DNA of 63,753 nt, filler included, from Reclinomonas americana ATCC 50394 (GCA_048213135.1; 14 parts of 14 records of this genome joined end to end with filler, not necessarily neighbours in it), one strand, 5' to 3'; positions 22,790 to 34,595 are shown, numbered from the whole stretch's first letter. Translations and numbers: made by a program. Notes: a model not told the origin generated them from the letters alone.

Positions 22790-23894
22790 CTGCCTTCGTA
22801 GCCTGCGCTGACTGCGCTGCGGTGTGTGCAGGAAATCGGCCGGAAACGCATGGAGATGGACGTGCTGCCGAATGACAACCTCACGCGCCTGTACGAGTAC
22901 CACGCAGACATTCAGCCGATGGAGGCCCGCCACCGCAAGGTGGCCATGACGGCGTTGGTGACGTATTTCGTGGCGCACTCGAATCTGCTGGGCGGAATCG
23001 CGTGGGCGCTGGTGCATTTGGCCATTCAGGACCGACAGCACGCCCAGCGTGTCATGACGGAGATTGAGGATGCGATTCGTCGGCACGGCCCACAGTTTAC
23101 GTCGCAGTACGATCTGCTGTTGGTGGAGTTGCCGCACCTGGAGCGGGTGATTTGCGAGGGACTGCGCATCGCGCAACACTCGCCAGTGCCGCGTCTGACA
23201 GTACGGCCGTGGGTGATGGAAGATCAAGACAGAGACGGCAAGCGAGTAGAGTGGCACCTGCCGACCGACACCTTCCTGCTCACGCGCCTGTACGAGATGA
23301 ACACGGTGAATCCGTACATGGCGGCCTACGAAGACGCACCGGCCATGTCGCAGTTTGAGCCGGCTCGGTGGGACGACACGTTCCTGTCGGAGCGCTACTA
23401 CCGCAAGGACGATCCCGCCAAGTACACGGTATCGATCTTTGGCTACGGAACACACGCATGCCCCGGCCGCAAGTTTGCCATTGCCGCCAGCAAGGTACGC
23501 CACTACTCTCCAGGGGTGGGGCTGTTGCGTGTTGTTGTGCCTGACAAAAGAGATGGGCACGCAGATCATTCTGAGCAAGCTGTTGTGGCGATACCGCTTG
23601 TTCCGCAAGTTTGGCGCAGTGCACATTCCGTACATGGCGCGCACCGCTGTGGCGCATCCTATCGGATCGTGCGAATTCGAGTACAAGAGCTCAGCTGTGA
23701 TGGAGCGCGAACGAGCCGAGAAGGAGCGGCAACGGCAGCAGGAAGAAGGACAACAACAGGCGAACGGCGAAGGCACGAACTCGCCGACGGCGGCGGCGGC
23801 GGTGACCACCAGCGCACAACTGGGCGGTCCGACGTCGCCACCCATTGCACAGCGCACCTCGGTTTCTTCGCCACCGTCCGCGCCAGTCTCATAG
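22790..23894 (+). CDS. Cytochrome P450, C-terminal part (5' end lost in gap)
   Basis: ExxR (ICEGLR), FEPARW meander, heme motif FGYGTHACPG. Confidence 0.9.
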
Positions 23895-31980: not shown

Positions 31981-33567
31981 CTACAGAGTGAAAAAGACGC
32001 CGGCGGCCGAGGCCACCAACATGATTAGTGCCAAAGTGACCAGCTGAATGCTGGCCGGCAGGGGTGAAGCAGTGCCGGTGGCACTGTTCGTGGTTGTTGC
32101 GGTTGTGGTGGTTGTCGTCGTTGTTGTCGCATCGTAGGCTCCAGTGGCACTGAGAAGAGCATTGCTCTGCACGCGCGGAACGAAGGAGTGAGTGGTGAGA
32201 TCCGGCGCGCGGAGACACAGTGTGCACAGTGCGGTACCTGCAGCCATGTCACGTACGCCGAGACGCGGATGAATGTGTATACTCCAGCCTGCACGCACCC
32301 ACACACACACACAGGAGACAAAGTGTTATGGCGGTCACCACTTGGATGATGAAGAGGGGACGATGCGACGCACAGCTGCTCCGCACGCTGATGGGCCCGA
32401 CACGACGACACCGACCACCACGTTGTTGACGAGTGCCGGACCGCCAGTGTCCTTGAGGCACGGCGAGTTGCCGGCGGTAGTGGTCATGCACACTTGCGTG
32501 TTGATGTCTGCACAGAGGAAGAGGTGCGTGAGGAGAATGGGAAAAATGGTGCGACAGTGAGCGACGGGCGAAACTGTCGCAGCCGGGAGTGGTGCCGACC
32601 ACCGTGGTCAGATTCACCGACTTGAGGCGAGTGGAGGTGGTCGCGGTGGTGCTCGCCGTGGGATCGGAGGTGACGCCAAAGCCGACCACCGCTGCATCGC
32701 ACGTGAGACCAGTCGTCCACTCGCTCACACGCCTCCCACGCAACTCGTGGTGACTCCCACATTCATGTTCTTGTTGTTGAGTGTGGCCGGAGCGACAATC
32801 GTGGTCTTCAAGAACGACAAGTCAGTCTTCACAATGGCAATGTCGTTGACGCCAGAACCCGTCCACCCGGGGTAAAAGATGACAGCGACCACCGGCACGG
32901 CCGCCTGACTGGACCCGGTGATGTCGATCTGACCGCCCACGGCCCAGATATTGGAGAGGGACTGGCCGACAGAAAAGCACCGCCTGCACATTTCCCGAAC
33001 ACTCAGCATGACGGGCGAGAAGAAGCGGAGAGAGGATGATGGGAGACAAGGGGACGCAACGCGGCTGTCATGATCGAGTTGGAGTTGATCAGGGTGCCGC
33101 CACTGTGGAGAGAGGAAGAAGGGTGAGGCGGATCATTCCCACTGCATCGGCTCGCATGATGCTCACCACTGCGCACAGCACGAGTGAGAACACGCCAAAC
33201 AGGTGATCGACAGACAAACAGAGTGAGTAAGACGCAACAAAGGGCGTTCCCAGCGGCGACTGCAACGAGATGAAGCTGCGTGCAATTAATCACTGTCAGC
33301 AATCGCTCACCGCAACAGAGAACCTGCGAGCCGCACCTGGGGTACAGTGACGCAGAGGAGACTGTGGTGCCACCCACAATGCGATCATCGATCTCCGCAC
33401 TGTCGACACCAGCGTCCTCTGATATCATCATCAGCAGAGAGGAGGTGCAATGTTGAGTGAGACAACAAAAGAAAGGCAGAAGAGGGGAAGGACAACGCAC
33501 CACTCGCGTGCGTCAGTAATACCAGCATCAGCAACACCAGCAGCAGCACGAACACTAATCTCCTCAT
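31981..33567 (-). CDS. Trypsin-like serine protease homolog (catalytically degenerate) with signal peptide, Thr-rich stalk and hydrophobic C-terminus
   Basis: RIVGG activation site, FCGGTLI, TAARC, NDIAIVK, VVGFG, CLKDTGGP, YTFIRVSAYVTWL. Confidence 0.85.
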
Positions 33568-33605: not shown

Positions 33606-34595
33606 ATGATGTCATCGCACCTTGTTTCTCCGATGAACGCGCTGGGTTTCCCGCTCCTGCGCACCTCGGTGGGTGGAGTCGCCCTGCGCCTCGGCTGCGT
33701 GTACAACTCCTGCAGTCCGGCATGCAACACACTCGCCGATCTGCAACGTCTCGACTCGTCGACCTCGGCGGCGGTGCTGACACGCACCGCGTTGCGTGAC
33801 GGGTTCGTGGAGGACGCCAATGTGCACCACTGGGTCACCATGCCGGCTGCGCGCTTGTCGACGGTGAACTCGCTGGGATACTCGCCACATGCATTCGCCT
33901 ACTATGTGGATGCGCTGCGACAACTGAGTGGTGAGCGGCCGCGGTTCATGTCGGTGACGGGCAGTGCGACGGAGGTGCGAGGCATGATTGCGGAGCTGGA
34001 GGCGATGAAGGTGCGCGTGGTCGACGCGGTGGAGATCAACTTGTCGTGCCCGAATTTCGCCGATAAGCCGCCACTGGCCTACGACTTTGTGGCGATGCGT
34101 GAGTTTGTGAAGGAGGCGGTGGCCGATGTGCAGACACTGCCGGTGGGTCTGAAGATTGCGCCGTATTTCTACGAGGCGCAGTTCCGTGCCGCCTGTGCGC
34201 TGATCAACGATTTCTATCCGCGTGTGCGCTTCGTGTCGAGCACCAACACGGTGGGGTCGGGTGTGGCGGTGGATGTCGACAGTGAGCGCATTCTCTGTCG
34301 CGGTGGCATCGGCGGTGATGTGATCCGGGCCCTGTCGCTCGGCAATGTGGCGCGCCTGCGGGTGGGACTGCGACCGGAAATCGACTTGGTGGGCGTCGGT
34401 GGCGTCAACTCGGGCGAAGCCGCGTTCCAGCACATTCTGTGCGGTGCGCGTGCCGTCATGGTGGCCTCGTGCCTGCTGCGGGAGGGCACCGAGTCTCTCG
34501 AGCGCATCCAGTCCGAGCTCGAGCAGCTGATGAGGCGCAAGGGGTACGGGAGCATCGAGGAGTTTCGCGGCAAGGCCGTCGCGCACCTCATTTGA
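33606..34595 (+). CDS. Class 1A dihydroorotate dehydrogenase-like FMN enzyme (possibly dihydrouracil oxidase clade), intronless
   Basis: EINLSCPN, KPPLAYDF, VGLKIAPY, STNTVG, GGIGG..IRALSLGNV, GVGGVNSGEAAFQHILCGA, KGYGSIEEFRGK; start may be 33606, 33609 or 33633. Confidence 0.85.
   Translation: MMSSHLVSPMNALGFPLLRTSVGGVALRLGCVYNSCSPACNTLADLQRLDSSTSAAVLTRTALRDGFVEDANVHHWVTMPAARLSTVNSLGYSPHAFAYYVDALRQLSGERPRFMSVTGSATEVRGMIAELEAMKVRVVDAVEINLSCPNFADKPPLAYDFVAMREFVKEAVADVQTLPVGLKIAPYFYEAQFRAACALINDFYPRVRFVSSTNTVGSGVAVDVDSERILCRGGIGGDVIRALSLGNVARLRVGLRPEIDLVGVGGVNSGEAAFQHILCGARAVMVASCLLREGTESLERIQSELEQLMRRKGYGSIEEFRGKAVAHLI

Follow-up and report, generated by a model that had tools for sequence, protein, structure and literature searches.

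Can two nucleotides form an exon of their own, and does a trypsin-like gene contain one? The gene in question lies on the minus strand (33567–31981) of the window, the whole 63,753-nucleotide stretch of DNA analyzed here, which has ~58% G+C and is intron-rich eukaryotic sequence. Within the gene, the initial annotation had singled out the dinucleotide TG, located between two GT..AG intervals, as an exon. We consider it likely, on the strength of the sequence, that TG serves as an internal exon of 2 nt, constitutively spliced, in a gene whose 10 exons encode a trypsin-fold protein that is secreted, anchored at its C-terminus and probably non-catalytic. Its presence in the mRNA is predicted from the anatomy of the locus and from the fit of the encoded product to its protein family. 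Splice signals, intron sizes, an enumeration of splice paths, the coding score of the upstream intron and a peptidase S1 profile all favor inclusion of TG, which is the reading first proposed for the locus.

Anatomy of the locus

The gene model comprises 10 exons and 9 introns, with a coding sequence of 957 nt and a product of 318 aa (Table 1). In the window copy, the reading frame is open over all 10 exons and all splice sites are intact. By eye, the N-terminus of the product resembles a signal peptide, and a Thr-rich linker leads to a C-terminus that is hydrophobic. TG occupies 33168–33167, exactly where it had been placed; the flanking intervals, introns A and B, begin with GT at 33238 and 33166, end with AG at 33169 and 33103, and reproduce the claimed sizes of 70 nt and 64 nt to the nucleotide. 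When the pieces TTT, TG and T GGC GGC are joined, the predicted F-C-G-G-T-L-I is obtained. The dinucleotide shows three features of an ultra-short (≤3 nt) internal exon: a complete intron upstream, a complete intron downstream, and a need for its two bases in both the reading frame and a conserved residue.

Table 1. Coordinates of the exons and introns of the trypsin-like gene, in window numbering
Feature	Coordinates	Strand	Length	Description
Exon 1	33501..33567	-		ATG and hydrophobic signal-peptide-like N-terminus (by eye)
Intron 1	33419..33500	-	82 nt	GTGCGT..ATCAG
Exon 2	33337..33418	-		Propeptide up to Arg, then IVGG; aligned at the start of the S1 profile
Intron 2	33276..33336	-	61 nt	GTGCGG..CGCAG
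Exon 3	33239..33275	-	37 nt	3′ end ...CCC TTT; profile alignment crosses the exon 2/3 junction
Intron A	33169..33238	-	70 nt	GTTGCGT donor; CTCAC branch-like site 33188–33184; GCGCAG acceptor
TG (predicted exon)	33167..33168	-	2 nt	Bases 1–2 of TGT, the codon for the Cys preceding GG
Intron B	33103..33166	-	64 nt	GTGAGC donor; CTCAC 33127–33123; pyrimidine tract; CCACAG acceptor
Exon 5	33061..33102	-	42 nt	T + GGTLINSNSIMTAA + GC
Intron 5	32984..33060	-	77 nt	Donor GTTGCGT
Exon 6	32745..32983	-	239 nt	Arg-Cys at the family's His-Cys; NDIAIV Asp motif present
Intron 6	32692..32744	-	53 nt	Donor GTTGCGT
Exon 7	32575..32691	-	117 nt	Gene model and S1 profile alignment
Intron 7	32508..32574	-	67 nt	Donor GTTTCG
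Exon 8	32374..32507	-	134 nt	C-L-K-D-T-G-G-P at the family's C-x-G-D-S-G-G-P
Intron 8	32289..32373	-	85 nt	Donor GTGCGT
Exon 9	32238..32288	-	51 nt	Gene model and S1 profile alignment
Intron 9	32167..32237	-	71 nt	Donor GTACCG
Exon 10	31981..32166	-		Thr-rich linker; hydrophobic C-terminus (membrane or GPI-type anchor, by eye); TAG stop

A dihydroorotate dehydrogenase gene is arranged head-to-head with the trypsin-like gene (plus strand, ATG at 33606, a single long ORF, 118 bits against Pfam DHO_dh). The two start codons, at 33567 (minus) and 33606 (plus), are only 38 bp apart, so that the 5′ ends of both transcripts would be either extremely short or overlapping. The window also contains 26 runs of exactly 44 N between 11021 and 62523, paired 12 nt apart, which resemble masking rather than assembly gaps.

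Splice signals of the flanking introns

At 70 and 64 nt, introns A and B fall within the 53–85 nt range of the gene, whose seven other introns measure 82, 61, 77, 53, 67, 85 and 71 nt. Each carries a donor, a CTCAC branch-like site and a YAG acceptor, in keeping with the typical size and strong signals attributed to them at the outset. The A of CTCAC lies 16 nt before the 3′ G in intron A and 21 nt before it in intron B.

The donor of intron A, GTTGCGT, is used three times in the gene model, by introns A, 5 and 6 (33238, 33060 and 32744, minus strand). The heptamer occurs 50 times in the window against 16.3 ± 4.4 in shuffled sequences, a 3-fold excess that none of 100 shuffles reached. Elsewhere in the window, 29 GTTGCGT sites have a branch-like site and a YAG downstream, which by a crude rule define candidate introns of 53–84 nt in 25 cases and of 122–151 nt in the other four. 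When expectation-maximization (EM) was run on the GT sites that precede 272 acceptor-like sites, it settled on GTTGCG[TC], with ~38 donors expected and 36 introns of 53–84 nt assigned. Around a stricter set of 141 acceptor-like sites, GTTGCG was the top GT hexamer 48–92 nt upstream (24 copies, 3.5-fold, with the locus itself counted). The donor of intron B, GTGAGC, was enriched at the same distance from acceptor-like sites of this type (9 copies, 2.4-fold, its own site counted). GTGAGC is a near-canonical partner of U1; GTCTTA, the donor of an alternative path considered below, is not.

GTTGCGT is thus a dominant motif of the 5′ splice-site type in the window. Donors of this kind have T, G and C at positions +3, +4 and +5, respectively, unlike the canonical GTRAGT. 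One way to view GTTGCGT is as GTGCGT containing a bulged T. A full-text literature search for GTTGCGT or GUUGCGU as a splice motif returned unrelated papers only.

Signal strengths are expressed here through these enrichment counts and U1 complementarity rather than as calibrated splice scores, because full splice-site models failed. A list of ORF-bridging intron candidates was too noisy to use (67,339 candidates), an iterated position weight matrix (PWM) scan drifted (396 matches vs 345 in a reversed-sequence control), and EM aimed at a further class of donors ended up describing (GT)n repeats. The seed-PWM scan gave a clear excess over control at lengths of ≤100 nt only (31 vs 1 at the strictest threshold).

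Coding potential was examined with a codon table trained on the Pfam-supported ORF parts of the window. Read in frame, intron A scored −0.30 per codon, an intron-like value, compared with a coding median of +0.19 and a mean of −0.48 for the other introns; the 5th percentile of 21-codon coding windows (−0.19) lies above it. The same stretch contains 39% T and 9% A, against 21% T and 19% A in coding sequence. Folding of the RNA from 33248 to 33093 gave −41.4 kcal/mol (z = 0.67) and disclosed no notable structure. When the window was searched by blastn with the 136-nt interval as query, it yielded short chance matches only, which argues that introns A and B are not copies of an element repeated there. 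Rfam and ARAGORN returned no matches over the window.

How often such an arrangement would arise by chance was estimated from Markov simulations. A loose short-intron pattern occurred 120 times in the window vs ~52 times in simulation. Tandem pairs of short introns separated by ≤15 nt numbered three in the window vs 24 in 100 first-order simulations (~0.24 per window). One of the three, an intron-GCGC-intron pattern at 23339–23195 (minus), lies on the strand opposite a cytochrome P450 ORF and probably arose by chance; the tandem pattern is therefore weak evidence by itself. What lifts the TG case above chance is that the dinucleotide restores the frame, completes a Cys codon at a family-conserved column and gives the top profile score.

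Another of the three pairs lies in an aldo-keto reductase gene (5624–5477 minus, Pfam 27.7 bits), where ...DLYLVHWPG and APGGK... are not joinable in frame by one intron if HWP is kept. A 13-nt exon (5557–5545) between introns of 67 and 68 nt would keep HWP. The other options there are a 4-nt exon (5557–5554) with a GC donor and a 37-nt exon, also with a GC donor.

Splice paths, family fit and rival readings

The predicted product belongs to the peptidase S1 (trypsin) fold by significant family-profile match. Exon 8 alone scored 21.4 bits against Pfam Trypsin (PF00089; cut-off 20.6, E 2.4e-4, profile positions 162–202), and exon 6 scored 15.5 bits (E 0.016, positions 54–119). For a finer comparison of splice models, an S1 profile was built locally from bacterial domains: 105 loci with a short S1 motif were fetched, and 74 with sensibly spaced His-type and Ser-type motifs were kept, a selection independent of the Cys residue at issue. 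In 69 of these 74 domains, C-G-[GA] occurs no more than 22 residues ahead of the His motif. The spliced model with TG scored 99.6 bits, aligning over positions 11–251 of 261, from R|IVGG to the C-terminal helix.

Paths from exon 3 to exon 5 were then enumerated, allowing GT or GC donors, AG acceptors, introns of 40–200 nt and no more than a single internal exon, itself limited to ≤40 nt. This produced 75 in-frame, stop-free paths. Cys directly precedes GG in three of them, and all three use the TG exon. The direct joint from 33238 to 33103 is absent from the 75, consistent with the earlier claim that skipping TG from the same donor shifts the frame. The Cys-before-GG feature of the family thus appears in the product only with TG, and the trypsin-like domain, counted by eye, has six Cys with TG and five without. 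This residue would pair with the Cys following the His position, as Cys42–Cys58.

The alternative named in the initial annotation, a donor at GC|GTCTTA (33233), does exist. Spliced to 33103, it would make TG part of a single 131-nt intron and yield F-V-A-G-G in frame and stop-free; longer introns may also exist, given the four GTTGCGT-anchored candidates of 122–151 nt obtained by the crude rule. We regard this path as very unlikely. Its donor agrees with the canonical site, as judged from U1 complementarity, only at GT; its length is 1.5 times that of the longest other intron of the gene; and the perfect GTTGCGT, CTCAC..GCGCAG and GTGAGC in or beside it would have to be coincidental. On the S1 profile it reached 91.3 bits, 8.3 bits below the model with TG, with five Cys left. 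Three further single-intron paths also ranked lower: donor 33215 (113-nt intron, S-L-C-F-G-G, 91.2 bits), and donors 33200 (98 nt, 85.6 bits) and 33191 (89 nt, 83.1 bits), which both introduce an insertion.

A path that had not been raised before extends exon 3 to 33177 and uses the donor GTGCGCA at 33176, which resembles the GTGCGT and GTGCGG donors of introns 1, 2 and 8. The resulting 74-nt intron (to 33103) is of normal size and its splice signals are plausible, and the path is in frame and stop-free. Its cost is a 21-residue insertion before GGTLI whose coding score and composition are intron-like (T 39%, A 9%), a profile score of 79.3 bits, which is 20.3 bits below that with TG, and a consensus donor, branch site and acceptor left unused within an exon. 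We hold it to be just as improbable as the 131-nt intron.

TG could also be an exon reached from a different upstream donor, either GC at 33235 or GTCGATC at 33211, and both of these paths are in frame and encode C-G-G. The GC donor gives introns of 67 and 64 nt, F-V-C-G-G and 96.8 bits, yet the consensus GTTGCGT at 33238 lies at a distance of just 3 nt and has a 2.8-bit advantage, and GC donors are generally rare. The donor at 33211 implies a 43-nt intron, below the observed size range. The chance that either is the donor actually used appears minimal. The preferred path remains TG between introns of 70 and 64 nt.

The encoded protein is probably a pseudoprotease, that is, a trypsin fold without active protease function, judging from the residues at its catalytic positions. 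The family's TAAHC column reads TAARC and its GDSGGP reads KDTGGP, so that the catalytic triad is incomplete, with the Asp column (nDvAl) kept as NDIAI. The Arg at the catalytic-His position is encoded at 32982–32980 and K-D-T-G-G-P at 32450–32430 (minus), and an activation-type Arg|IVGG junction is kept. By chymotrypsin numbering, the substitutions correspond to H57R, G193K and S195T; it is the presence of Arg, Lys and Thr at the His57, Gly193 and Ser195 positions that points to loss of catalysis.

Searches for relatives were negative throughout. The window holds no paralogue of the gene, protein-library searches with exon 6, exon 8 and a 66-aa ORF across the whole interval found no relatives, and neither did a metagenome scan with exon 6. 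Exon 6 produced three matches among protein representatives, all of them long repeat proteins that were judged spurious from their sequences. Genome-contig scans with the P450 and dihydroorotate dehydrogenase ORFs found no relatives, and the ORF surrounding exon 5, compared with the PDB, matched nothing but a Fab by chance (E 1.4). The protein has diverged too far for any relative to be found with its exons taken singly.

The search for public sequencing runs listed no RNA and a single run, the small DNA set X1 (share 0.07), which supplied a second copy of part of the locus as a single 415-nt contig at depth 2. It represents unspliced genomic DNA over 32815–33202 and is ~97% identical to the window, with 10 substitutions and one 2-nt insertion. 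The two copies are identical at TG and throughout 33150–33202. The differences comprise the 2-nt insertion and two substitutions in intron B, two substitutions in intron 5, and six in exon 6. Of the six in exon 6, five alter a third codon position without changing the amino acid, in support of the reading frame used there. The sixth is adjacent to one of these five; together, in this depth-2 contig, they amount to a swap of adjacent bases at 32931–32932 that turns GGT CAG into GGC TAG, a premature stop in exon 6. The X1 copy may be a pseudogenized allele or homeologue, or the stop may be a contig error. The stop counts against treating the gene as indispensable, and given the substituted catalytic positions, the gene is conceivably under relaxed constraint.

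These observations bear on the possibility of a locus in decay or without productive expression, either untranscribed or giving a main product that skips TG (33238 to 33103) and is frameshifted. Such a state would agree with Arg, Lys and Thr at the His57, Gly193 and Ser195 positions, with the exon 6 stop in the X1 copy, with the lack of a homologue in very large protein libraries, and with the frameshifted frame staying open through intron 5 into exon 6. We nevertheless think it quite unlikely: the window copy has all its splice sites intact and encodes 318 aa over 10 open exons, five of six exon 6 differences are synonymous and at third positions, and the S1 profile aligns over its full length at 99.6 bits.

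Proposed sequential splicing and known ultra-short exons

If TG is indeed an exon, its introns (~50–85 nt is the usual length in this genome) would each be recognized across themselves, that is, by intron definition. The branch-like site and AG of intron A lie 2–20 nt upstream of the GT of intron B. The sites of A and B would thus be too close for two simultaneous spliceosomes, and the introns would consequently be removed one after the other, each acting as the flanking "exon" while its neighbor is excised. Removal of A first would create the donor context TTG|GTGAGC; removal of B first would leave the acceptor context GCGCAG|TGT, which is unaltered, so that either order would provide a workable substrate. 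The joined product, TTT + TG + T GGC GGC, would supply the Cys that pairs with the Cys beside the lost catalytic His position. We infer sequential splicing of introns A and B.

A more far-reaching interpretation is that this genome routinely uses exons of a few bases between ~65-nt introns, together with an undescribed dominant donor class, GTTGCGT, the aldo-keto reductase gene at ~5.5 kb, where a 13-nt or 4-nt exon seems required, being a second case, and that the TG exon is an obligatory checkpoint or switch for ordered splicing. We find this doubtful. Were it true, pairing of donor A with acceptor B would skip TG, shift the frame and silence the gene, and the locus would be a compact natural substrate for spliceosomes taking turns on overlapping sites.

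Even as a constitutive exon, TG would have practical consequences if the prediction holds. The gene would be modeled wrongly by ordinary gene-finding and read-alignment software, which would shift the frame, lose the Cys or insert 21 spurious residues; for 1-nt plant exons, such mis-modeling has been demonstrated (PMC8831610). Exons of ≤3 nt are documented in few organisms, to which a protist or fungus-like example would be added. As both pairs of splice sites are intact within 136 nt, the locus is handy for testing the removal order of abutting introns.

Several known systems resemble parts of this arrangement. Zero-nucleotide recursive sites, the AG|GT ratchet points that subdivide very long animal introns and leave no exon, likewise place a 3′ splice site beside a 5′ splice site and are removed stepwise; they are also cited in PMC4674806. 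Here, AG and GT are split by TG and the whole interval spans 136 nt, which sets the locus apart from them. At the protein level, inactive S1 serine-protease homologues keep the trypsin fold while their catalytic residues are replaced. The predicted product is like them in its fold, disulfides and Arg-IVGG junction and in its replaced catalytic residues, and unlike them in its Thr-rich linker and hydrophobic C-terminal anchor.

The stwintrons (spliceosomal twin introns) of fungi are reported to be two U2-type introns in contact that have to be removed by consecutive reactions (PMC9024468, PMC6616335). In a stwintron, the donor, branch site or acceptor of the external intron is split by the internal one, and no sequence between the two is retained; at the present locus both introns are complete and 2 nt are retained, which places it outside this class. 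The 1-nt exons of plant APC11 and VPS55 stand closer. RT-PCR and reporter assays have validated them, and they are found conserved throughout land plants (PMC4674806, PMC8831610); for the Arabidopsis case the authors propose intron definition with the two introns removed in turn (PMC4674806), in agreement with the intron definition or ordered splicing suggested for TG at the outset. They are constitutive and were missed by annotation, and like the predicted TG exon they are ultra-short and sit between two ordinary introns; they are, however, validated and conserved, whereas the TG exon is a prediction in a gene for which the searches found no orthologue.

The nearest counterparts come from a long-read annotation of the mushroom Coprinopsis cinerea, in which 2-nt exons number 57, spread over 50 genes, alongside 13 1-nt and 27 3-nt exons (PMC12230235). 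Measured against those 57 exons in 50 genes, the first description of the TG exon as "extremely rare" was right about rarity and overstated in its degree. The two settings share a 2-nt internal exon, an intron-rich genome and an omission that breaks the frame; they differ in that the Coprinopsis cinerea exons are backed by full-length cDNA reads and the TG exon is predicted from DNA. Since 2-nt exons with long-read support are already published, the TG exon opens no new category: it is a further, predicted case among documented ultra-short exons.
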